NCBI GenBank assembly: GCA_024654415.1
Contig: JANLHQ010000011.1
Span: 1-35,817 of the forward strand
Source: Candidatus Azambacteria bacterium
Lineage (GTDB): Bacteria; Patescibacteriota; Minisyncoccia; GWC2-36-17; WO2-46-25
Direction: 5' to 3'
DNA: 35,817 nucleotides
The stretch's first letter is position 1; each line of letters begins with the position of its first letter. The notes under the pieces are model-generated. The model saw only the letters and a list, made by a program, of their open reading frames with translations. It was not told the DNA's origin and ran no database searches. Positions 8,610-18,957 of the stretch are shown piece after piece. Made by a program: the position numbers and the translations under genes.

Positions 8610-10088
8610 TTACATTACAAGCTCCTGATATCGCGCTTCGAGAAAGTCATTGATACCGTGAATGTCTTTTTTATTCCGTAAATTCAATAACTGTTTTATG
8701 TCCTTATCATCAAGAGCAATTATTCGGCCCCTACCGTCGTTCGCAGTATCTTTGCACCTCTTAATAAAGAGTTGCTTGTTCTTAAACGTACGACAAATAA
8801 GAAAACCAAACTGGCCTCGATTAGTAGAAAAACGTCCTGACAGTTGGTCAAGCTCTGGGTTGGCTGGGTCGCTTGAATAATTCTTGCATTCTACAAAAAC
8901 ATATCCTGACGGGACACTTTTAGTATTTGGGAGGTCAAAGAAAAAGCCATCGTGAGCCGCATTTTGGAAAGTAACATCAATTCTTTTTCTCCCCTCGTGT
9001 ATTTCATGTTCCTTTTTTGGATTAATAAGGTAAGGATAAAAAATTGCTGTTAATACACCAGTTATGTGATCGTGAAATTTCTTTGCGTTTTCATCGCCGG
9101 CTGGTATTGCACCAAGTTCACTAGCCAATGAATTGTAATCAAATTTTGACTCCTCAGCCTGACCAAAAGCAAACATGAGCAAGTCCTCGACAGTTATTTC
9201 ATTTAGGGAATAATTTTTACTTTTCTTATAATTTTTTAGAACCTCTGGATGTGCTTTAGAAAACTCATATAGATATGGCTTCGACAATGGATTTAGCTCT
9301 TTGAGTGCTTTTTTGAAAGGTGGGCGTCTCGTCCCATCTTTTAATGTTCTCACTAAAGATGAGTTCGCGTCTAAATGTTCTGATTGTAAAAAATTTAATA
9401 CAAAATGCTGATAGTATTCTTGATGGTTAAATTCTATTCCAAACCTAGCAATAGCCTTGGGTACGAGAATGACGCTGTGATTTTTGCAGACAGGTAAGTT
9501 AATATACTCGCTCGTCCATTTTTTATTTTCATTGTCCCAGATGGGGCCACTCGGAACAGAAACCATTGATATGCCCCAAAGCTCACATTGGGCTTGAGTG
9601 TATTCAACCAATTTATGGCGAATAATATTTGTTGAAATATCTGAAATCTTATCTCGGCTAATACCCTCAATTAGAAGCTCGCATTCTTCCAGGTCCTTAA
9701 TAAAACCCGTCTTAACGGCTGTGCTATCCGCAAGTGCTTTATATAAATCTTCCGCTTGCTCACCACCAACGCCCCTGCCTCGCGGATTTTCTCCTTTAGA
9801 AAGTCCGAATCTGGTCTGGTTCGGCTCTCTTAATCCAGACAGCATGTATTTAGCTTGCGGTTCATTACCTTCTCGAATCTGATCAATAACACCTTGAAAA
9901 AATTCGACAATGGCATTATGACAGTCAGTCGACCAATAATCACTTCTTTTTGAAACAGCATATGGGTCAATAAACAAAGGGATGTCCCCGTTGTTAATAG
10001 GGACATCCACAAAATCAAGCTCGTATTGGCTTTTATTCAAGCGGAAATATTCAGAAAATGTCTGCGCCATTATAATTTTCATATTCAT
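8610..10088 (-). CDS. 492-aa protein: unknown N-terminal ~370 aa plus a C-terminal PD-(D/E)xK (Mrr-cat/restriction-endonuclease-like) domain
   Basis: C-terminus reads EIHEGRKRIDVTFQN...GYVFVECKNY...GQFGFLICRT, i.e. the E/D...D...E-x-K arrangement of restriction-endonuclease-fold nucleases. The N-terminal part matches nothing I recognise. Confidence 0.55.
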   Translation of the reverse strand: MNMKIIMAQTFSEYFRLNKSQYELDFVDVPINNGDIPLFIDPYAVSKRSDYWSTDCHNAIVEFFQGVIDQIREGNEPQAKYMLSGLREPNQTRFGLSKGENPRGRGVGGEQAEDLYKALADSTAVKTGFIKDLEECELLIEGISRDKISDISTNIIRHKLVEYTQAQCELWGISMVSVPSGPIWDNENKKWTSEYINLPVCKNHSVILVPKAIARFGIEFNHQEYYQHFVLNFLQSEHLDANSSLVRTLKDGTRRPPFKKALKELNPLSKPYLYEFSKAHPEVLKNYKKSKNYSLNEITVEDLLMFAFGQAEESKFDYNSLASELGAIPAGDENAKKFHDHITGVLTAIFYPYLINPKKEHEIHEGRKRIDVTFQNAAHDGFFFDLPNTKSVPSGYVFVECKNYSSDPANPELDQLSGRFSTNRGQFGFLICRTFKNKQLFIKRCKDTANDGRGRIIALDDKDIKQLLNLRNKKDIHGINDFLEARYQELVM

Positions 10089-10122
10089 TTTTCATATTCA
10101 TCTCTTGATTATCAACTCCGGC

Positions 10123-10659
10123 TTACGATCCTTGCATTAAAGAAATAAGACTATTCAATTCCGGTACGTTAGCACGTTGTGTATCAAGGGTTGCTTTTGG
10201 AAAAAACTTATCATATTCACCGAGCTCAGTCCGTTTTTTCTTATTCAAATAATTGGATTCAAACTCACTTTTGCACCATGCTGAAGTCTTGCCGGAAAAA
10301 GATTGTCCGGGCCTCAAAATTGCGAGTAATATTGCCTCTAAGCAGGGGGAATTTTCGAGCAGTTCAATTCCTTGCTGTTTTGCTTCCGTTCGCGCCTGAT
10401 TCATTTCCTGCTCACCTTTGTCATTATCCAAAATCACGATTTTCCGATCAAACGCACCCGGCTCATTTACGGCATTAGTGATTATGTTTGTTGCTGTGCC
10501 ACCTTTGCCATTACGGATTGTTACAGCGACTCCGCTGTCTCGAGAGTATAATCCGCGCAAATGCTTTAGGAACATCTCCTCACCAAGCCCTTCTCCATAC
10601 ATCAGCAAGGTTCGGCTGGCACTACGACGTTTTTTCTTGTAAGGATTTGTCCGTGACAT
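10123..10659 (-). CDS. small Toprim-like protein (RloB / DUF4276-like)
   Basis: 178 aa. LLMYGEGLGEEMFLKHL (conserved E-G..E near the N-terminus) plus KIVILDNDKG (DxD) give a Toprim-type acidic signature. Its size and position directly downstream of an ABC-type ATPase fit RloB-like partners. Confidence 0.55.
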   Translation of the reverse strand: MSRTNPYKKKRRSASRTLLMYGEGLGEEMFLKHLRGLYSRDSGVAVTIRNGKGGTATNIITNAVNEPGAFDRKIVILDNDKGEQEMNQARTEAKQQGIELLENSPCLEAILLAILRPGQSFSGKTSAWCKSEFESNYLNKKKRTELGEYDKFFPKATLDTQRANVPELNSLISLMQGS

Positions 10660-10670
10660 GATTTTCTATG

Positions 10671-11879
10671 TTAAATCTTCGGAACAGCTCCATACGCCCC
10701 GGCGATATATTTTGAATAATAATTATCATCAGAACGTACATCAGATACCTCATCTAAGCGCCATGCCTCGCTTATACCGTTCTCATTCTTTTCGACCAAT
10801 ACAATTTGATACTTATCTAACTTACTTAAGAGCATATGACTATGGGTACTTAAGAGAAGCTGTGCGTTTTTAGGATTCGTCTCCGGCTGTATAAACAAGT
10901 CAAACAACGCCATAACCATTTCAGGGTGTAGATTTACATCAAATTCGTCAACAATAGCAATACTTCCTTTTTCAAGGGCCGCAAGAATACTCTTCAAAAG
11001 TACAAACAATTGCTTTGTTCCAAATGACTCATATTGAACAGGTAGATACAACGTCTGCCCATTAAACATGTGGGATGCTCGGACATTAAGAGAAAAACCG
11101 TTTTCCTTTTTTTCTTTTTTTATCTCAAATCCACTTAGTCCCAAGTCAAATCGGCAAAGCAATTTTTCTGCTTCCTGTTTAAGAGCACTGTTTTCACTAA
11201 AGAAATCAAAAGCTTCGCCAAGTTGTGCGATTGAATTTGGTAGCAAATGGTCTCCGATCCAACCAGCCTCAATGACATTTGTTTCTATTTGTCCCCAATA
11301 TGTTGCTATCGTTTGACTTTCCGCATGATTAAGTCGAGCGGCAGTACCAATAACGCTCGCATTAGAACGCAAAAGATTTTCAAACCCTTTTGGCAAATCA
11401 AAATTATCTCCCTCAAAATCATATCGATTTTCTTTCACATTCCAGTTTCGAGAAAAAATCTTCTTGGTAGATTTTTTCTCTTTTGCAAAACTAGTGAGCT
11501 TTAGATCTTCGCTTAGAATCTTTTCTTTGGTGATAGTAAAAGCATAGGTATACACTTTTCCATCGACCTCAAAAACCACCGATAAGTCTGTCGGCTCATT
11601 CTTTTCGTCCCCAAACGCAAACGGCTGAACGACAATAGGATTCTCTGGCTTCATATTGAACGAATCAATAATCAACCATTTCAAAAACGGTAAAACTTTT
11701 AGCAAATTTGTTTTACCGGATGCGTTAGGTCCTATAACTGTTTCGACCTTCGAGAGTCGTACACCTGACTTGGCTACAAAATAGCCATTATTCTCTGGGG
11801 CATTACCATTTACCTCGAAAACAAGCGATGTTTCCTCACCAAAGGAATAGAAGTTTTTACATGAAATTGAATGAATCAT
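10671..11879 (-). CDS. ABC/SMC-like AAA ATPase (AAA_15/AAA_21, COG1106-type)
   Basis: Walker A GPNASGKT, signature-like ESFGTKQ, Walker B IAIVDEFDVNLHP, H-loop LSTHS, and a long helical insert between Walker A and the signature. Confidence 0.8.
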   Translation of the reverse strand: MIHSISCKNFYSFGEETSLVFEVNGNAPENNGYFVAKSGVRLSKVETVIGPNASGKTNLLKVLPFLKWLIIDSFNMKPENPIVVQPFAFGDEKNEPTDLSVVFEVDGKVYTYAFTITKEKILSEDLKLTSFAKEKKSTKKIFSRNWNVKENRYDFEGDNFDLPKGFENLLRSNASVIGTAARLNHAESQTIATYWGQIETNVIEAGWIGDHLLPNSIAQLGEAFDFFSENSALKQEAEKLLCRFDLGLSGFEIKKEKKENGFSLNVRASHMFNGQTLYLPVQYESFGTKQLFVLLKSILAALEKGSIAIVDEFDVNLHPEMVMALFDLFIQPETNPKNAQLLLSTHSHMLLSKLDKYQIVLVEKNENGISEAWRLDEVSDVRSDDNYYSKYIAGAYGAVPKI

Positions 11880-11918
11880 ATTTTTATATGTTTTACCTTT
11901 ATTACCTCGACCTATCTC

Positions 11919-11947
11919 ATACTAGCAGATAATAGATAGAATTGCAA
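11919..11947 (-). promoter_or_regulatory. sigma-70-like promoter of the ATPase cassette
   Basis: On the minus strand: TTGCAA (11947-11942), 17-nt spacer, TAGTAT (11924-11919), about 40 nt upstream of ATG 11879. Confidence 0.5.
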
Positions 11948-11951
11948 GCTT

Positions 11952-11971
11952 TTCTACAATAATTTGTAGAA
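11952..11971. promoter_or_regulatory. perfect 8-4-8 palindrome abutting the -35 box (operator-like)
   Basis: TTCTACAA-TAAT-TTGTAGAA, located 5 nt upstream of the -35 hexamer of the ATPase promoter. Confidence 0.45.
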
Positions 11972-12053
11972 AGTGGAGAAATATAGGTATTTTCAAGCTA
12001 TTTTACCTCCTCGGACTAGCCTGATTCTTAAGTTATACACACCCCTATAAGAT

Positions 12054-13037
12054 TCAGCTTTCTAATGCCCTGATTATTTCTTTGGTAACATGCCACATAA
12101 CGACGGGTGCGACAGCATTTCCCAAAGCTTTATAATTCGTCGTTCGTGATCCGGGAAGCACAAAAGAATCCGGAAAAGATTGTATGCGAGCTACCTCAAG
12201 GGGGGTGAACATTCTATACCTGCCATTTACCTGCAAAACCGGGTCGGTGCTGTTTAAGCTTACTTTTGCAAGATGTGCTCCGACTGTATTGCTTGGTTCA
12301 TGTAATTTTTGCACCCGGCCCTTGTTCATGGTCTTTGAGTGTTTGGTTGCGGACATACCGTTGACAGCTTTTGCGCTGAAATAAAATTTTTCCTCGACTT
12401 CATGGTTGGGTAAAACAATCATAGAAAGTGGCACCGGATTGCTTTCGGTTACCGGCTTTGGAAATTCGAAGCGGTCATACGTTTTCTTATTCTTGAATCC
12501 TACAATAAACACACGTTCGCGTTTTTGCGGAACGCCGTAATGGGAAGCATTCAGAACCTTATATTTGATATGATAGCCAGCTCGCTCGAATTCTTTTATG
12601 ATTAGCGGAAAAGCTTCTCCTTTGTTAGCCGACAGTAATCCTTTCACATTCTCGGCTACGAATACGGACGGTTTTTTGTCTTTAAGAATCCTGCACATTT
12701 CGAAAAACAATTTTCCTCTATCATCTTTATATCCGAGGCGGCGAGGATTCTGCGCCACTACCGAAAAAGATTGGCAAGGAAACCCTCCGGTCAAAATATC
12801 GTGATCTGGAACATCTTTTGATTTCAGTTCTTTTATATCTCTTACATCAATTTTCAGTGAAAAATTCGCATTATAAACATCGCATATCGATTTATCGAAA
12901 TCCGTGGCATAAACTGTTTCCACCGGATGTTTTTTAAATCTTTTGCCCAAGTACGCGAAGCCGCCCTCCGCCCCTAGGTCCATCCCTCCGCATCCACTAA
13001 ACAAGGAAACTATTTTGTATTTTTTGGTTATTTTCAT
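12054..13037 (-). CDS. DNA (cytosine-5)-methyltransferase
   Basis: Motif I LFSGCGGMDLG, motif IV GGFPCQSFS, motif VI ENVKGLL, motif VIII QKRERVFIVG, motif X GNAVAPVV. The start overlaps the upstream stop (ATGA, 13034-13037). Confidence 0.9.
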   Translation of the reverse strand: MKITKKYKIVSLFSGCGGMDLGAEGGFAYLGKRFKKHPVETVYATDFDKSICDVYNANFSLKIDVRDIKELKSKDVPDHDILTGGFPCQSFSVVAQNPRRLGYKDDRGKLFFEMCRILKDKKPSVFVAENVKGLLSANKGEAFPLIIKEFERAGYHIKYKVLNASHYGVPQKRERVFIVGFKNKKTYDRFEFPKPVTESNPVPLSMIVLPNHEVEEKFYFSAKAVNGMSATKHSKTMNKGRVQKLHEPSNTVGAHLAKVSLNSTDPVLQVNGRYRMFTPLEVARIQSFPDSFVLPGSRTTNYKALGNAVAPVVMWHVTKEIIRALES

Positions 13038-14464
13038 ACGAGTAATTTCTCCCAGTATCCTGATTTATCTGAGTACCTGATATCCGCTCCGTCACGTGGA
13101 CTCATATCTAGCGTGTCAGATTTGTATTGGCCAACAGGATCTTGGATCAGGAACAGATTTACATCCTTGGACGAAATCATTAATCTATAAACAAAGTAGG
13201 TTTTTCTCAAACTATTGGCCGCACTCCATTCGCTCGGCGTCATATGAAAGTTACTCGTCGCGAGCTTGCCTCGACTGATGCTTGTCTTGACCTCGACATA
13301 CCTGCGAATATCACCGATTCCTTCGAAAGACGAAATATCATATCCGACTGCGAATGTCTCCGGAATTTTCTTTATAAGATGCAATAAGTCTTCGCGCTTA
13401 AGCGTTACCATCCTGATTTTCTCGTGTTCGATCACGATTGCTTCACCTACATCTCCCACCTCTTTGGTTTTTACTTGTTCACCCTCTCTGATCATCTGCA
13501 CTTTCATCAAAACTTCTTTAATGAATGCGCTCGTATCCCTATCTTCAGTGGTTTCGCTGGCTTCTTCGATAATTGAAAGGATGTTTGCTTCAAAGATACT
13601 TGAATCAAGCTTGTTGTTTACATGATGGAACCAATCTTGCTGAGTGGATACCACGTCAGCGAGTGATAGATCGCTCTTGGTGTACAAGGGCTGATAGGGT
13701 GCGAAATATGAGCCGTCGTTGATAAAAGCCTGTATCGTTTCAAGATTTACCGTGTTTAAATAATACTGATAGTTCTGCCTAAGTCTTACCAGATCGGCGA
13801 GCTCCATGTAATCGAGCACATCTCCTGCATAGCGGATAACATCTCCTTGAGAATCATATTCAATATCGTTTTTCCTGTTGGCCAAGATAAGCTCCGCTGT
13901 TTCCTTCGGAGAACGATTGTCCCTTGTAACCCTTAAGTCGTTAAAAATACAGTGGGTGGTTTCAGCTTTCGTCAAACCAAATTTTTCCGACTCGCCGACC
14001 AGTTTCTTGCCTTCAAGCATTACCTGCATAAGATATTTTGCCGGCTTGAATCTAATGCCGGCTTTTATGCATTCAAGAGTTTCGTGGGGTTTCAAATGAC
14101 CTCCGGGATACTGGAAGTAGAAAAGAAAATATCGAAAAAATTCAATAAGGTCCTGCGATTCTGAAAGCAGAAGAGCCATGCGTCCAGGTTGGGATATATC
14201 CCCGTCGTGTTCGATCAGCCCGAATAAGGACGAAATCTCAGTACGCCAATTATTGATTGTCTTTAATTCTTTTGAAAAATTGCCGGGGTAGAACTTGATG
14301 GTGTTATTTAATTTCTGCTTGAAAGTTTCGTGTTCCTCTGGCTTGAGCTTTGCAATTTCTGTCGCCATATAGAAAAGCACGTTCTCGACATCGTTTTTGA
14401 AACGAGGACGGATGTGATGTAGTCTGAAAAAATATTCTTTTGGTGTTTTGTAAATACTTTTCAT
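13034..14464 (-). CDS. putative restriction endonuclease (N-terminal recognition region plus C-terminal PD-(D/E)xK / DUF3883-like domain)
   Basis: Sandwiched between two m5C MTase genes with 4-nt ATGA overlaps on both sides. The C-terminal GYDISS...RYVEVKTS...FHMTPSEW...YFVYRL matches the D...E-V-K nuclease pattern of DUF3883-type domains. Confidence 0.6.
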   Translation of the reverse strand: MKSIYKTPKEYFFRLHHIRPRFKNDVENVLFYMATEIAKLKPEEHETFKQKLNNTIKFYPGNFSKELKTINNWRTEISSLFGLIEHDGDISQPGRMALLLSESQDLIEFFRYFLFYFQYPGGHLKPHETLECIKAGIRFKPAKYLMQVMLEGKKLVGESEKFGLTKAETTHCIFNDLRVTRDNRSPKETAELILANRKNDIEYDSQGDVIRYAGDVLDYMELADLVRLRQNYQYYLNTVNLETIQAFINDGSYFAPYQPLYTKSDLSLADVVSTQQDWFHHVNNKLDSSIFEANILSIIEEASETTEDRDTSAFIKEVLMKVQMIREGEQVKTKEVGDVGEAIVIEHEKIRMVTLKREDLLHLIKKIPETFAVGYDISSFEGIGDIRRYVEVKTSISRGKLATSNFHMTPSEWSAANSLRKTYFVYRLMISSKDVNLFLIQDPVGQYKSDTLDMSPRDGADIRYSDKSGYWEKLLV

Positions 14465-15513
14465 ATCTTTTTATTTAAAGCTTTAGCCAGGGCTTTCGCT
14501 ATCTGTTCTGCCATAAGCGGCGGAACCGCGTTTCCAACTTGCTTGTATTGGCTGGTTTTGGAACCCATGAACACGAAATCATCGGGGAATGATTGCAGTC
14601 TAGCAGACTCCCTAACCGTGGGTATCCGGTTCCATTTGTAATGGAAATGGTGCCTATGTCCGGTATCGATGGTAAAGCTTGGTTTGTTACTGCTGTATCG
14701 GGTCCAAGCTATATTGACACGGCGGGTATTTTTTAGATGATCCGGCAAATCTTTGTAATTGCCCCCGTCAGGCACAAGCGCAATGATGTCTGTTGTTTTT
14801 TGATCATGATTTGTTATCTCATGGTTAAAAATTTTATTAGACTTTTTTCTCATTTTCGCCTGATAATCCGAAACTGGTTTTTTCTTATTCTCTGTTCCAT
14901 CCTTAACTGATCCTTCGGGAAGATCGGAAATAGCCTGTCCTGCGGTTGCTTTAGATTCAGGATCCGAAAAGGTTGGTTCGGGGAAAATAAAGCTGTTATG
15001 ACCAAGGGTTCCCACAAATACGACACGCCTGCGGTTTTGCGGAACGCCGTAATCAGAAGCTAGCATGACTTTGTATTTGACCTCATAGCCAAGAGCTGTG
15101 AAATCCTTCAGGATTTTATTCTTTATTTTGCCGCCAGACATCGCTACAAGATTCGGAACATTCTCAAGGACGAATGCCTTCGGTCTCAACTGCTTCACTG
15201 TTTTAACAAAGCTGGTATAGAGTCCGTTACGAGGGTCATTTGGATTCCTTTTCCCTGAAATTGAAAATCCTTGACATGGTGGTCCACCGACCACTACATC
15301 GATTTTGCCAGTAATTTTTTCTAAATTCTTGGGATCGAAGTTTCCTAAATCCATCAGAATGCCTTTTGATCCGGGATGATTCCTCTCAAAAGTTATAAGT
15401 GAGTCTTTCCAGTTATCTATTCCTGCTACCACGTCAAAACCAGCTCGTACAAAACCGTAGGAAAGACCACCACAACCTGAAAATAGATCTAGAACTTTTA
15501 ATTTATTCTTCAT
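14461..15513 (-). CDS. DNA (cytosine-5)-methyltransferase
   Basis: Motif I LFSGCGGLSYGF, motif IV GGPPCQGFS, motif VI ENVPNLV, motif VIII QNRRRVVFVG, motif X GNAVPPLMA. Confidence 0.9.
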   Translation of the reverse strand: MKNKLKVLDLFSGCGGLSYGFVRAGFDVVAGIDNWKDSLITFERNHPGSKGILMDLGNFDPKNLEKITGKIDVVVGGPPCQGFSISGKRNPNDPRNGLYTSFVKTVKQLRPKAFVLENVPNLVAMSGGKIKNKILKDFTALGYEVKYKVMLASDYGVPQNRRRVVFVGTLGHNSFIFPEPTFSDPESKATAGQAISDLPEGSVKDGTENKKKPVSDYQAKMRKKSNKIFNHEITNHDQKTTDIIALVPDGGNYKDLPDHLKNTRRVNIAWTRYSSNKPSFTIDTGHRHHFHYKWNRIPTVRESARLQSFPDDFVFMGSKTSQYKQVGNAVPPLMAEQIAKALAKALNKKI

Positions 15514-16165
15514 GTGTGTGCAACGTTACTTCCTTAAAGCCGCTTTGGGTAATAATTACATGGCCTGACAATCGGAATCCTAATATGTTTGCCGCCTCCA
15601 ATAATTGCCAAGTAATTTTTTTATCTTCGGCCGATGGTTCAAGGCTCCCGGAAGGGTGATTATGTGCAATTGTGATTGATGATGCTGAAAGCGAAATCGC
15701 TGGTTCAAATATCTCGCGTGGGTGGACAAGACTGGAGTTGAGAGTCCCGATAGAAATGATGCGTCTTTCAATGATTTTATTTTTCGTGTCTAGATAAAAA
15801 ACGGCCAAATGTTCCTTTTTGGAATCATAAAAATCAGCGCACAGTTTCCAGATGTCTTCAGGGGATTGGACTACGATGCCTTTCTTCTCATTCAGTCGGC
15901 CACTTAGCTCAATTAAAGCTAATATCTGGGAAATCTTAGCTCGACCTAGGCCATGTATTTTTTTAAAGTCACCTCTTGAAATATTTGCCGATCCCATACT
16001 CTCTATTTTGCGTAAAATCTCTCGACTCAAAGCTAAAACATTTTTTCCTTTAATGCCTGAGCCAAGAAGGATCGCCAAAAGTTCCGAATCAGAAAGCCGC
16101 ATCGGTCCGTATTTTTCGAGTTTTTCTCGCGGTCTATCAACTTTTGGTAAATCTTTTATTTTCAT
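15503..16165 (-). CDS. radC: RadC-like JAB/MPN-domain protein (UPF0758)
   Basis: N-terminal RPREKL..YG...LSDSELLAILLGSG plus an HhH region. JAMM motif HNHPSGSLEPSAED. The stop overlaps the MTase start by 11 nt. Confidence 0.85.
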   Translation of the reverse strand: MKIKDLPKVDRPREKLEKYGPMRLSDSELLAILLGSGIKGKNVLALSREILRKIESMGSANISRGDFKKIHGLGRAKISQILALIELSGRLNEKKGIVVQSPEDIWKLCADFYDSKKEHLAVFYLDTKNKIIERRIISIGTLNSSLVHPREIFEPAISLSASSITIAHNHPSGSLEPSAEDKKITWQLLEAANILGFRLSGHVIITQSGFKEVTLHTHEE

Positions 16166-16167
16166 AA

Positions 16168-16356
16168 CTATTTTTTGATTGCCTCGTAGTCTCCCTCGTT
16201 GCCAATTACCCGGATGTAGTCCTCACAACCATCAACCGCAATAGTCTTACACTTGCAATAAGTCATCTTTTTCCGAGTATCACTAAAAATCTCATCAGCG
16301 CATTTCTTGCATTTGATGTAGATTTCTTTTTTGGCATTGTTGGCGATTTCCTTCAT
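16168..16356 (-). CDS. small Cys-rich zinc-ribbon-like protein, hypothetical
   Basis: MKEIANNAKKEIYIKCKKCADEI...YCKCKTIAVDGCEDY (CxxC ... CxC ... C). ATG 16356 lies 4 nt after the Fic stop. The longer track ORF (to 16407) would overlap the Fic gene. Confidence 0.5.
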   Translation of the reverse strand: MKEIANNAKKEIYIKCKKCADEIFSDTRKKMTYCKCKTIAVDGCEDYIRVIGNEGDYEAIKK

Positions 16357-16360
16357 AAAT

Positions 16361-17422
16361 TTATAGTTTTCTATAGCTTGTTGATCGGCCTTGCCCAATG
16401 CGCTCAATCTTTTTGAGTCGCATCAATTTATCGATTGCCTGCCTGACAGTCGGATAAGCGACTTTCGTCTGTTCGGAAATCTCACGCGGCGTAGCACTTT
16501 CAACTTTTTGGAGATAATTCCAAACAGCGAGCTGTTTTTGTGTGAGCAATCGTTCAATATTTTCTTTGGACAAAAGATCGATGGCCATCTCCGATTGTTT
16601 TAAGAAAATGGTCAAGAAGAAATCCAACCACGGAATGATGGTTTCATGATCTGTCTTAAATGTTTTTTGGCTCTGACGAAGCACAAGATAATAATCTGGC
16701 TTATTATCTTCAACAAATTTCTCATGCGAAACATAGGGCATATACAAGTATCCCTCTTTCAATAAAAGAAGGTTAGTGAGTACGCGGCTAAGACGGCCGT
16801 TGCCGTCTTGAAATGGATGGATCTGCAAAAATTCAACAAGAAAGTTGCCCACAATAAGAAGTGGATGATAACTCTTCTCTTCAAGAGCTTTTTGGGTCCA
16901 CTCAACCAATTCCAGCATTTCTTTGGGAGCAAGATATGCCGGCGTGGTGTCAAAAAGCACGCCAATGGATTCTCCGGCGGCGTTTATCATCTGTACCTGA
17001 TTTTCTCTTTTTTTGTAATCGCCTCGATGGCCTTCGTCCTTCTTTACATACTTCAGGAGTTCTTTATGGAAGTGTTTGATAGTGCTTTCATTGAATTTCA
17101 AACTTTTCCAAGAATTAAAAATATTCTCAAGCAATTCGTAATATCCTTTGACTTCCTGTTTGTCCCGATCAGTAAATTTTTGGATATCAATACCCCGCAT
17201 GAGCTTCTCCACATCTTCATCAGAGAGCCTTGCCCCCTCAATACGAGTTGATGCTCCAGTTGAAGTAATCAAAACAGACCGTTTGAGACGACCTAATACC
17301 TGAGACGAGAGTTGTGCTCCGGCGATCCATTGCCCCTTTAACTCATCAATTCTTGCTATTTTTGACCAGATTTCAGCCGGTAAATGCTCTATCCGCTGGT
17401 CTAATTTGATGTTATTTGCCAT
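16361..17422 (-). CDS. Fic-family protein (class II, N-terminal inhibitory helix) with C-terminal winged-helix domain
   Basis: Fic motif HPFQDGNGRLSR. Autoinhibitory (S/T)xxxE(G/N) motif STRIEG in the N-terminal part. The C-terminal LQKVESATPREISEQTKVAYPTVRQAIDKLMRLKKIERIGQGRSTSY is wHTH-like. ATG 17422 is preferred over the TTG at 17443 used in the track. Confidence 0.85.
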   Translation of the reverse strand: MANNIKLDQRIEHLPAEIWSKIARIDELKGQWIAGAQLSSQVLGRLKRSVLITSTGASTRIEGARLSDEDVEKLMRGIDIQKFTDRDKQEVKGYYELLENIFNSWKSLKFNESTIKHFHKELLKYVKKDEGHRGDYKKRENQVQMINAAGESIGVLFDTTPAYLAPKEMLELVEWTQKALEEKSYHPLLIVGNFLVEFLQIHPFQDGNGRLSRVLTNLLLLKEGYLYMPYVSHEKFVEDNKPDYYLVLRQSQKTFKTDHETIIPWLDFFLTIFLKQSEMAIDLLSKENIERLLTQKQLAVWNYLQKVESATPREISEQTKVAYPTVRQAIDKLMRLKKIERIGQGRSTSYRKL

Positions 17423-17593
17423 ATATTTAATCCGATATATCAACTATAGCGGATTATAACGAATAAATCAAACTCGCCGCTTATTATTAGTTAGGCCAAC
17501 AAGTTGTAATAAGGACACCCGTATTACGACTTGGCAACAAAGTAGGCTAGTTTGCTTACATCTGGCAGAGCAATGTAAACAAACTTAAAGAAG

Positions 17594-17602
17594 TGTTATA
17601 AT
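17594..17602 (+). promoter_or_regulatory. extended -10 promoter element (TGnTATAAT) with no annotated gene behind it
   Basis: TGTTATAAT at 17594-17602. The -35 is weak (TGTAAA 17574-17579). Confidence 0.35.
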
Positions 17603-17660
17603 AAAATCAACAACTGAATAATTTCGCTCCAAGGGGCGACCTGAAAGGTATTCCGGGTCC

Positions 17661-17712
17661 AAGGGCTCGCAATCGATCACTTAACGGTGAAAGATTGCGA
17701 GCCCTTTTGTTT
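17661..17712 (+). terminator. long hairpin followed by a T-rich stretch
   Basis: AAGGGCTCGCAATC (17661-17674) pairs with GATTGCGAGCCCTT (17693-17706). The loop contains a TCAC/GTGA mini-stem. TTGTTTAGTTGTTT follows. Confidence 0.5.
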
Positions 17713-17887
17713 AGTTGTTTAGATAAAAATGATCATGAATATGAAAATGGTCTCAATGGAGACGAGCTACAAATTTGATATTGTTGCAACGAAAGACGCG
17801 GTCCGAGATGCTTTTACAACATTCGAACCGCCAAAAGAGCCCGTCAATAAAGGATTAACACCAGCTTTCGCTGATGTTAATCCTATC

Positions 17888-17919
17888 TGGCTCCGCGGGT
17901 AGGATTCGCCTCTCCCTAC
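17888..17919 (-). pseudogene. decayed copy of the tRNA-Asn 3' end (T-arm, acceptor strand, CCA)
   Basis: Minus strand reads GTAGG-GAGAGGCGAAT-CCTAC-CCGCGGA-G-CCA. 19 nt (17890-17908) are identical to 18038-18056 of the intact tRNA. The T-loop is disrupted and there is no matching 5' half. Confidence 0.6.
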
Positions 17920-18037: not shown

Positions 18038-18076
18038 GCTCCGCGGGTAGGATTCGAACCTACGACCAAGCGATTA

Positions 18077-18644
18077 CACTTGTTTGGTAAGTGGACTATA
18101 TCATCTCCTTCTTCGTTAGAAGTTAAGGAGTCGGGCGCTTATGAGAGATTATTGTTGGGACTCACTCTCTAGTCTCTACACCTTCCTTGAAACTAAAACC
18201 CTTCAAGGCTTGGCTCGGTATTAGATTAACTTCTCCTTCACCGAATTCACCCGATTTTTCAATCCTGATTTCTCAGGAAAGCTGCCTGAAGCATGGATCT
18301 CTGCGTGGCAATTGCTACACAAAAGAATACACTTATCTAATTCTTTTCTTACCCTTTCCCAAGATTGTGTATATCCTTTTGACGCAACTCCGAAATCCTT
18401 GCCGCCAGGTTCTTTATGATGAAAAACTAAAGCAGTTTCACATCTATTGTAGCCACATTTCTGACAAGCTCTTCCCTTATATTCAAGAGACATTTTCTTT
18501 ATATCCTTTCGTCTCTTGTCTACAAAGTACTTAAGCTTGCAGTTTACGCTACAGAACCTGCGTCGTGGTTTCATAATAGTGTTAACGCAAACATGATAAT
18601 TACATTTCATGATTACATTATACCCTATTATGAGCCAAACTTTG
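18077..18644 (-). other. group I intron (IC3-like) in the anticodon loop
   Basis: Minus strand contains AATTCGGTGAA, CCGAGCCAAGC (18218-18208) and GAAGGTGTAGAGACTAGA (18185-18168). I recognise these as the conserved P4, P6 and P7 core strings of the Azoarcus and cyanobacterial tRNA introns. The proposed boundaries obey the rules that the 5' exon ends in U and the intron ends in G. Confidence 0.7.
18221..18610 (-). CDS. HNH homing endonuclease encoded within the intron
   Basis: 129 aa starting at ATG 18610 (MKCNYHVC...). Contains CQKCGY...LVFHHKEP...LLCSNCHAEIH, an HNH motif with flanking Cys pairs. The longer track ORF (to 18709) runs through the tRNA 5' exon and is an artefact. Confidence 0.75.
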   Translation of the reverse strand: MKCNYHVCVNTIMKPRRRFCSVNCKLKYFVDKRRKDIKKMSLEYKGRACQKCGYNRCETALVFHHKEPGGKDFGVASKGYTQSWERVRKELDKCILLCSNCHAEIHASGSFPEKSGLKNRVNSVKEKLI

Positions 18645-18957
18645 ACAGTCGCCTGCGCTACCACTGCGCCACCGCGGAATATGTTTTCCAATGAACTAAC
18701 GCTCCTCAATCGTAATTGAGGAGCGTATGTCTATGGTGTCAGATACACCACACACATACGCTACCCATATGCACTCCCACAGCGCCCCTCCGTCGCCTTG
18801 CGCTTTCACGCAGGCGGCGGAGTGCTCTATGGTAATCTCCCGGTACCGGTGTTGCCCGACATTGCGGACAATCGGCTACCGAAAAACAAGAATGGAAAGA
18901 ACAAAGCATATCAATTATATACTTTTTTCGCAACCCCGCGCAACAGAGAACCTTTCC

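Follow-up and report, generated by a model that had tools for sequence, protein, structure and literature searches.

Six genes on the minus strand of a contig from a very small bacterium lie so close together that they raise the question of whether they form one defence system or several that share a site. The contig is JANLHQ010000011.1 of Candidatus Azambacteria bacterium (Patescibacteriota), from the 0.81-Mb Candidate Phyla Radiation (CPR)/Patescibacteria assembly GCA_024654415.1. Positions 1-35,817 were analysed; this whole stretch of 35,817 nucleotides (nt) is called the window, and its positions serve as coordinates throughout. From 5' to 3', the co-directional genes encode a Fic protein, a small Zn-ribbon protein, RadC, a C5 cytosine DNA methyltransferase (M1), a restriction endonuclease (R), and a second C5 methyltransferase (M2) (Table 1). 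The first-pass annotation of this DNA had described M1-R-M2 as a restriction-modification (R-M) core, had called its tight operonic fusion to Fic and RadC a non-standard layout, and had suggested that Fic, the Zn-ribbon protein, and RadC might make it a composite system with an accessory arm. After comparison with related loci, which are referred to by number (L033 and so on), the cluster is regarded as probably a stack of separately inherited defence parts at a dnaG-rpoD-tRNA-Asn hot spot, brought into its order by cassette replacement.

The gene spacing was taken from the open reading frame (ORF) listing and by direct reading, and it agrees in every junction with what had been described. The Fic stop codon TAA is separated from the Zn-ribbon ATG by 4 nt ('attt') and the Zn-ribbon TAG from the radC ATG by 2 nt ('tt'), the start of M1 overlaps the end of radC by 11 nt (ATGAAGAATAA), and both the M1/R and the R/M2 junctions are ATGA overlaps. 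Most co-directional junctions of the window are 0-11 nt long or overlapping, and as close packing is normal in this genome, the spacing alone is not more than chance would give; comparative data, not spacing, carry the weight for gene linkage. No intergenic terminator between the six genes was found in a terminator scan, and a promoter scan gave 29 promoter-like sites versus 24.9 expected from shuffling, which is not above expectation; both scans were uninformative. Co-transcription of the six genes is plausible; among the sequencing runs searched, none of RNA contained the stretch.

The radC-headed restriction cassette

Homology to three other loci begins at radC. Window positions 12047-16173 matched the genome locus L033 at 83% nt identity, ending just beyond the M2 stop codon; positions 10085-16176 matched the genome locus L034 at 86%, running through AbiL; and positions 12664-16173 matched the metagenome contig L170 at 81%. 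All three blocks of homology begin 8-11 nt 5' of the radC ATG, and in all three loci radC is preceded by a gene of 64-65 amino acids (aa) with an HTH_17 domain, not by Fic and the Zn-ribbon gene. Judged from these boundaries, RadC-M1-R-M2 is inherited as a four-gene block. The part of the composite proposal that placed RadC with the R-M genes thus stands, and the part that added Fic and the Zn-ribbon protein does not, since neither is obligate: the block occurs without them in L033 and L034, and they occur without it in L124/L125, L128, and L130.

The neighbourhood of radC was then surveyed in species-representative genomes. The scan returned 79 loci with RadC proteins at 44-88% identity, of which 78 gave a RadC ORF and were analysed, with neighbouring genes labelled by clustering and Pfam. 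The next gene downstream of radC was an R-M gene in 27/75 loci by cluster labels and in 30/75 when L079, L098, and L110 were included. These next genes include HsdM, HsdR, type III Mod, N6/N4 and C5 methyltransferases, and GmrSD, and the systems that follow RadC are of types I, II, IIS, III, and IV. Under the labelling applied to the RadC tree, 43/74 loci had an R-M gene within three co-directional genes of radC. Upstream neighbours were R-M genes in 2/74 only (Fisher p = 1e-8 for the asymmetry), and the median gap from radC to an R-M gene was 4 nt, compared with 48 nt to other next genes. RadC proteins linked to R-M are spread across the RadC tree, on which the state changes at least 21 times, and very close RadC proteins head different cassettes. 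In-frame fusions of RadC to a C5 methyltransferase were found in L098 (21-1733, 570 aa), where an NgoFVII-like nuclease gene follows, and in L021 (1-1848, 616 aa, cut by the contig start); L074 has the order RadC, C5 methyltransferase, HpaII-like nuclease. The linkers of both fusions carry the motif Q-x-S-L-[FY]-D-L-L, similar to a sliding-clamp-binding peptide. This motif is absent from RadC and M1 of the window, and a clamp-binding linker was rejected as an explanation here.

RadC might instead be a conserved neighbour that flanks a defence-island hot spot with no functional tie to restriction, so that its adjacency merely marks the insertion site of cargo. Such a role would suit the very close RadC relatives with different downstream cargo, the toxin-antitoxin (TA) pairs (Phd-ParE), Fic, RhuM, and AbiE genes that also adjoin radC, and the distant RadC proteins that lie among housekeeping genes. 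It is judged quite improbable in view of the in-frame fusions, the asymmetry of direction (30/75 downstream versus 2/74 upstream), the short median gap, and the homology blocks that start right at radC; moreover, radC is absent from four congeners and is therefore cargo, not a fixed chromosomal flank. By sequence comparison, RadC belongs with the R-M core, being co-inherited with it, directional, tightly coupled, and fused to a methyltransferase in relatives.

The RadC protein of the window is full-length, with a helix-hairpin-helix (HhH)-type N-terminal domain and a JAB domain (Pfam UPF0758_N, PF20582, 3.3e-23; RadC, PF04002, 1.2e-35). In its translation the metal motif E ... HxH ... S..D is intact (HPREIFE ... 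HNHPSGSLEPSAED), and the JAMM motif HNHPSG...S..D that had been noted earlier is present. The host genome has a single copy of radC. The gene is patchy in its distribution (15/61 relatives and 0/4 congeners) and is therefore an accessory gene; its absence from the congeners and its place inside a mobile block rule out the housekeeping radC of the genome. RadC would serve the R-M system as an accessory hydrolase bound to DNA; it might deal with self DNA that is damaged or lacks modification, or it might govern restriction during establishment of the cassette. Few bacterial proteins that lack a known function are, to our knowledge, as widespread as RadC, which has stayed unexplained for decades, and ultra-small bacteria are thought to depend heavily on R-M systems. 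Its inherited place at the head of a restriction cassette gives a testable handle on what RadC does.

The R-M core itself is of a known kind. M1 matches Pfam DNA_methylase (PF00145, 1e-79) and PADLOC MTase_II (1.8e-118), M2 matches the same Pfam family (1.6e-80), and the FSGCGG, PCQ, and ENV motifs are found in both translations. Residues 5-279 of R correspond to BpuJI_N (Pfam, 2.3e-100) and the C-terminal part to NOV_C (9.8e-11), a PD-(D/E)XK domain. Among Protein Data Bank (PDB) structures R matched 2VLA and 5HLT (1.7e-20), and the GYD...YVEVK of its translation corresponds to the active site YD348...E367VK369 of BpuJI, in which D348, E367, and K369 are the active-site residues (PMC1874659). 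In Bacillus pumilus, the genes bpuJIM1 and bpuJIM2, both for 5-methylcytosine (m5C) methyltransferases, flank bpuJIR, which is typical for a type IIS system (Sukackaite et al. 2007, PMC1874659). Because the same order is published for BpuJI, the M-R-M core of the window is ordinary, and by its domain matches it is a BpuJI-family type IIS system in standard order. A RadC gene at the head of such a cassette was found in none of the papers searched. The RadC-headed form is regarded as an undescribed variant. From homology, the two m5C methyltransferases would each protect one strand of an asymmetric site, M2 presumably serving the other strand, and R would bind the site through its N-terminal domain and cut nearby through the PD-(D/E)XK domain.

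Some observations concern the downstream end of the block. PADLOC labels the genes downstream of the cluster as AbiLi/AbiLii and PDC-M36A. The spacer of 174 nt between M2 and AbiLi contains a perfect AT-rich palindrome, TTCTACAAATTATTGTAGAA, at 11952-11971, which may be an operator or a weak terminator. In L033, M2 is followed by a gene for a Vsr mismatch endonuclease (12108-12530), which usually accompanies C5 methyltransferases; Vsr is missing from the window, where AbiL follows instead.

The Fic gene and the Zn-ribbon mini-gene

The Fic protein matches Pfam PF02661 (2.7e-14) and the PADLOC profile SoFic over nearly its full length (6.9e-42; residues 26-351 versus profile positions 36-349 of 361), with weak matches to winged helix-turn-helix (wHTH) domains. 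Its best PDB match was 8UQU (1.7e-29), and SoFic (3EQX) matched at 1.7e-7. In the translation, the catalytic motif HxFx(D/E)GNGRxxR reads HPFQDGNGRLSR and the inhibitory-helix motif (S/T)xxxE(G/N) near the N terminus reads STRIEG, so that the catalytic motif, inhibitory motif, and wHTH tail of the first description were all recovered. The protein is predicted to be a SoFic-like AMPylase of Fic class II that ends in a winged helix, and it is likely a stand-alone abortive-infection (Abi) or toxin module.

Fic has its own line of homology. Window positions 16063-17733, which comprise the upstream region of Fic, Fic, the Zn-ribbon gene, and the first ~100 nt of radC, are 87.6-87.8% identical at the nt level to L048 and L176, while the remaining RadC protein of these loci is merely 55% identical to that of the window. 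The upstream region contains a promoter-like TTGATT-17-TATAGT at 17471-17443, a consensus match only and no sign of function. Fic would be a self-contained module, a toxin or an abortive-infection gene, that brings its own upstream region; with the Zn-ribbon gene, here a member of DUF7695, it occurs in L124/L125, L128, and L130 in places that have no RadC or R-M genes. Separate from this, L047 (4006-4395), L067 (5457-5846), and L072 (22-345) have stand-alone genes of 107-129 aa homologous only to the winged-helix part of Fic (58-66% identity). These genes overlap the radC start by 4 nt, and the DNA-binding tail is retained there where the Fic domain is missing.

Fic, sometimes with the Zn-ribbon gene, was followed by RadC and then by type I or III R-M genes in six other loci (L047, L053, L067, L072, L092, and L105). 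The adjacency is therefore not unique to this contig, which a survey of related genomes had been suggested to decide. The recurrence is consistent with one integrated six-gene system, in which Fic, the Zn-ribbon protein, and RadC are an accessory arm that regulates or backs up R-M, or, as a variant, in which a toxin is latent under R-M and released when a phage inhibits restriction, for which PrrC-EcoprrI is a precedent. Tight packing without space for terminators would suit it, as would the presence of the same gene families on one island in L170; there, however, they form two units ~1.5 kb apart with a divergent gene and a helix-turn-helix (HTH) gene between them. RadC-M1-R-M2 without Fic and the Zn-ribbon gene in L033 and L034, and Fic with the Zn-ribbon gene alone in at least four loci, both argue against it. 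Where Fic lies directly upstream of RadC, an R-M gene follows in 6/12 loci, which is no more than the background of 43/74; Fic, given RadC, is therefore not raising the chance of a downstream R-M gene. The placement of the Zn-ribbon gene, with 85% of DUF7695 genes behind an Abi/TA-type module and 30% directly before R-M, favours an integrated system, while the free swapping of its partners does not. One integrated system is considered unlikely, and from gene content across the loci, Fic-RadC-R-M reflects genes that repeatedly come together in a defence hot spot and not an obligate composite.

The Zn-ribbon gene belongs to Pfam DUF7695 (PF24749, 4.8e-13, 49.1 bits versus a curated cut-off of 25) and has the pattern CxxC...CxC...C, with C16, C19, C34, C36, and C44 conserved. 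It has a coding signature, as codon-position entropies are 0.81/0.68/1.22, with third positions varying most, and none of the 64 distinct copies contains a stop codon. The family is rare (8/400 other Patescibacteria genomes). In the 61 metagenome loci with enough flanking sequence, the upstream gene was AAA14-DUF4143 in 22, AbiEii in 15, Fic in 13, and AbiLii in 1, and an R-M gene followed directly, within 450 nt, in 18/61. Such followers are HsdR in L146, L175, and L199, a type III system in L144 and L183, and a HaeIII-type system in L122; in L166, DUF7695 is followed by RadC and then by type I R-M. Direct junctions of the Zn-ribbon gene to radC were found in L048, L176, L138, and L166. The DUF7695 tree barely clusters by upstream partner, and in 1255 pairs of loci the nt homology is limited to the mini-gene, from the stop codon to ~15 nt before the start. 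On this evidence the Zn-ribbon gene is a portable mini-gene between Abi/TA-type modules and R-M cassettes. Its conservation at the DNA level while both neighbours swap makes it, after RadC, another undescribed part of defence islands that can be put to the test.

A role as a Fic-specific antitoxin like AS1 of SoFic was down-weighted, as the upstream partners are interchangeable and the Zn-ribbon gene does not co-vary with them, which argues against a partner-specific antitoxin. The gene holds the slot that the HTH gene has in L033, L034, and L170, and it may therefore encode a small regulator or adaptor. Of five AlphaFold models of the Zn-ribbon protein, one was confident (predicted local distance difference test [pLDDT] 83, others <50) and was all-beta. 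A PDB fold search with the model gave no match under E = 0.4; a ribosomal Zn-ribbon protein came out on top, and no functional lead resulted.

Variants of this slot were recorded. A contig of the groundwater metagenome run X2 joins window position 16167 to 16367, so that the 3' end of Fic abuts radC without the Zn-ribbon gene. At L170:1747-2205 and L134:7538-7996, a gene of 152 aa separates the Zn-ribbon gene from the module upstream of it (Fic or AAA14-DUF4143); its L170 copy starts with MPKEIA, as the Zn-ribbon protein does, as if recombined in at the 5' end of the mini-gene. A degenerate DUF7695-like ORF precedes RadC at L040:727-948, with an MPQEIA start and an EDYIRIGG end kept and the Cys pattern lost.

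From the recurring order, a broader and rather doubtful proposal can be made, namely that an Abi or toxin module, the DUF7695 Zn-ribbon gene, optionally RadC, and R-M genes form a conserved three-tier architecture of Patescibacteria. RadC would then be a general partner of DNA methyltransferases and of all R-M types, and the Zn-ribbon protein, as adaptor or controller, would make an exchangeable suicide module depend on how the R-M system fares, by a guard logic like that of PrrC-EcoprrI. If true, this would be the first concrete role for RadC.

Putative recombination joint and island border

The two lines of homology meet within radC. Sliding identity to the L048 type is high down to ~16080 and to the L033/L034 type from ~16172 on, and the stretch of joining resembles both parental types. 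The present gene order would result from cassette replacement in which one crossover fell within the first ~30 codons of radC, and the six genes would thereby probably have come under the Fic promoter. Reading from the Fic promoter region is inferred because there is no space for signals between the genes and the RadC block has no upstream region of its own.

Since the joint lies in a stretch of ~90 nt common to two lineages and no public run covers the entire cluster with high identity (from the DNA runs X1-X4 came short contigs of relatives only), one might suspect that the Fic/Zn-ribbon-RadC junction is chimeric, an artefact of metagenome assembly at the conserved 5' end of radC. This is highly improbable. 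On either side of the Fic/Zn-ribbon segment, at 17819-17908 and again from 16173 on, the window keeps its collinearity with L034 and L033, so two switches would be needed, and the Zn-ribbon-to-RadC junctions of L048, L176, L138, and L166 are independent. With collinear flanks on both sides, a double-crossover cassette replacement is much likelier than a chimera.

An exact repeat of 18 nt, with 0.04 chance matches expected, duplicates the tRNA-Asn 3' end, and it fits an integration scar at the border of a decayed integrative island. L033 and L034 sit at the same tRNA-Asn site, and at the position that Fic and the Zn-ribbon gene occupy in the window they have a large serine recombinase with Resolvase and Recombinase domains (L033:3180-4970, L034:1160-2842). 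The stretch from tRNA-Asn to HTH_17-RadC-M1-R-M2 holds the recombinase together with small phage-like genes, and by this gene order the R-M block is the cargo of an integrative element in L033 and L034.

Table 1. Positions in the window of the six genes and of the sequence features around them.
Feature	Position	Strand	Basis and remarks
Fic	16361-17425	-	ATG is the likelier start; alternative TTG at 17443
Zn-ribbon (DUF7695) mini-gene, 62 aa	16168-16356	-	ORF and Pfam
RadC	15503-16165	-	ORF and Pfam; first gene of the R-M block that appears to be inherited as a unit
M1, C5 cytosine DNA methyltransferase	14461-15513	-	Pfam DNA_methylase and PADLOC MTase_II
R, predicted BpuJI-family type IIS restriction endonuclease	13034-14464	-	BpuJI_N and NOV_C
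M2, second C5 cytosine DNA methyltransferase	12054-13037	-	Pfam DNA_methylase
Non-coding region travelling with Fic	17443-17733	-	L048/L176 homology reaches 17733
Putative recombination joint, first ~30 codons of radC	16080-16172	-	Sliding identity
Duplicated tRNA-Asn 3' end	17890-17907 (second copy 18038-18055)	-	Exact repeat

The tRNA-Asn of the window is split by a group I intron (18039-18700, minus strand; Rfam RF00028, 50.1 bits, 18076-18298) with an HNH ORF at 18221-18709; ARAGORN found no tRNA in the whole window. In L202 (1-6387), dnaG-rpoD is followed by AbiEi-AbiEii-Zn-ribbon-C5 methyltransferase, and in L167, rpoD by AAA14-DUF4143-Zn-ribbon. The site beside rpoD seems, from these gene orders, to be a shared defence-island hot spot of these bacteria.

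Several points weigh against a stack of separately inherited parts in which RadC serves the R-M genes. Gene calls in the loci came from a simple longest-ORF heuristic, and the RadC sample was picked by similarity to the query and represents a clade, not all RadC proteins. About 40% of the RadC loci in this clade have no R-M gene within three genes, some of them cut by contig ends. In a taxonomy-based sample, distant RadC proteins of the same class (37-43% identity) lay among housekeeping genes in 7/11 cases; the link to R-M therefore holds for one RadC clade and not for all RadC. As Fic lies beside a RadC-headed R-M system in six other loci, a functional tie is possible. Pairs of DUF7695 loci share the upstream side only in 186 cases and the downstream side only in 33, which suits a Zn-ribbon gene partnered with Abi modules no less than one that leads R-M cassettes. 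The functions given to RadC and the Zn-ribbon protein are drawn from gene context, and a shared Fic promoter, probable as it is, rests on spacing and homology breaks. A stack of separately inherited parts is nevertheless preferred, and with it the first reading of the locus is corrected in that the M-R-M core has an ordinary layout and Fic is a neighbour that can be separated.

Comparison with known systems

In PrrC-EcoprrI, a toxin is kept latent by the R-M system and freed when a phage inhibits restriction, and PrrC and Rlo genes are abortive-infection genes embedded in type I R-M loci. The loci described here are similar in that toxin or Abi-type genes (Fic, AbiE, AbiL, ATPase) stand beside R-M genes; they differ in that the modules of the window are inherited separately, and the likeness is one of gene placement.

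In position, the Zn-ribbon gene would suit a controller (C) protein gene of type II R-M operons, a small gene directly upstream of R-M in the same direction, and the slot before radC is held in L033, L034, and L170 by an HTH gene of 64-65 aa. The Zn-ribbon protein itself is not an HTH protein.

BpuJI and the window share a single nuclease gene between two m5C methyltransferase genes, and R has a BpuJI N-terminal recognition domain and a C-terminal resolvase-like PD-(D/E)XK domain with YD...EVK. The recognition domain is distant from that of BpuJI itself (1.7e-20 versus 2VLA), and the target site is therefore probably not CCCGT. The cassette of the window is also headed by RadC, whereas the BpuJI paper names bpuJIR, bpuJIM1, and bpuJIM2 alone (PMC1874659).

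SoFic, a single-gene defence and also the toxin of a toxin-antitoxin pair, has a small antitoxin gene of 47 aa, AS1, downstream (PMC12249575). The Fic protein of the window is like SoFic a class II Fic with an N-terminal inhibitory helix and a C-terminal winged helix, a very small gene follows it directly (4-nt gap), and pairs of Fic and DUF7695 recur. It is distant from the SoFic of S. oneidensis (1.7e-7), and its small neighbour is a 62-aa Zn-ribbon gene that also stands behind three unrelated types of module.

Published contexts of RadC include fusions to ArdC, primase, and DinG helicase, and a role in nucleic-acid processing has been proposed (Iyer et al. 2011, PMC3239186; 2017, PMC5512222). 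Among the papers searched, none was found that describes an operon link of RadC to R-M or a fusion of RadC to a C5 methyltransferase. The RadC of the window shares with RadC/YicR (UPF0758) the same HhH and JAB architecture, the intact JAB metal motif, and the known leaning to mobile elements and conflict-related contexts (PMC3239186, PMC5512222). It differs in that here RadC is systematically first in R-M operons and, in relatives, fused to C5 methyltransferases.

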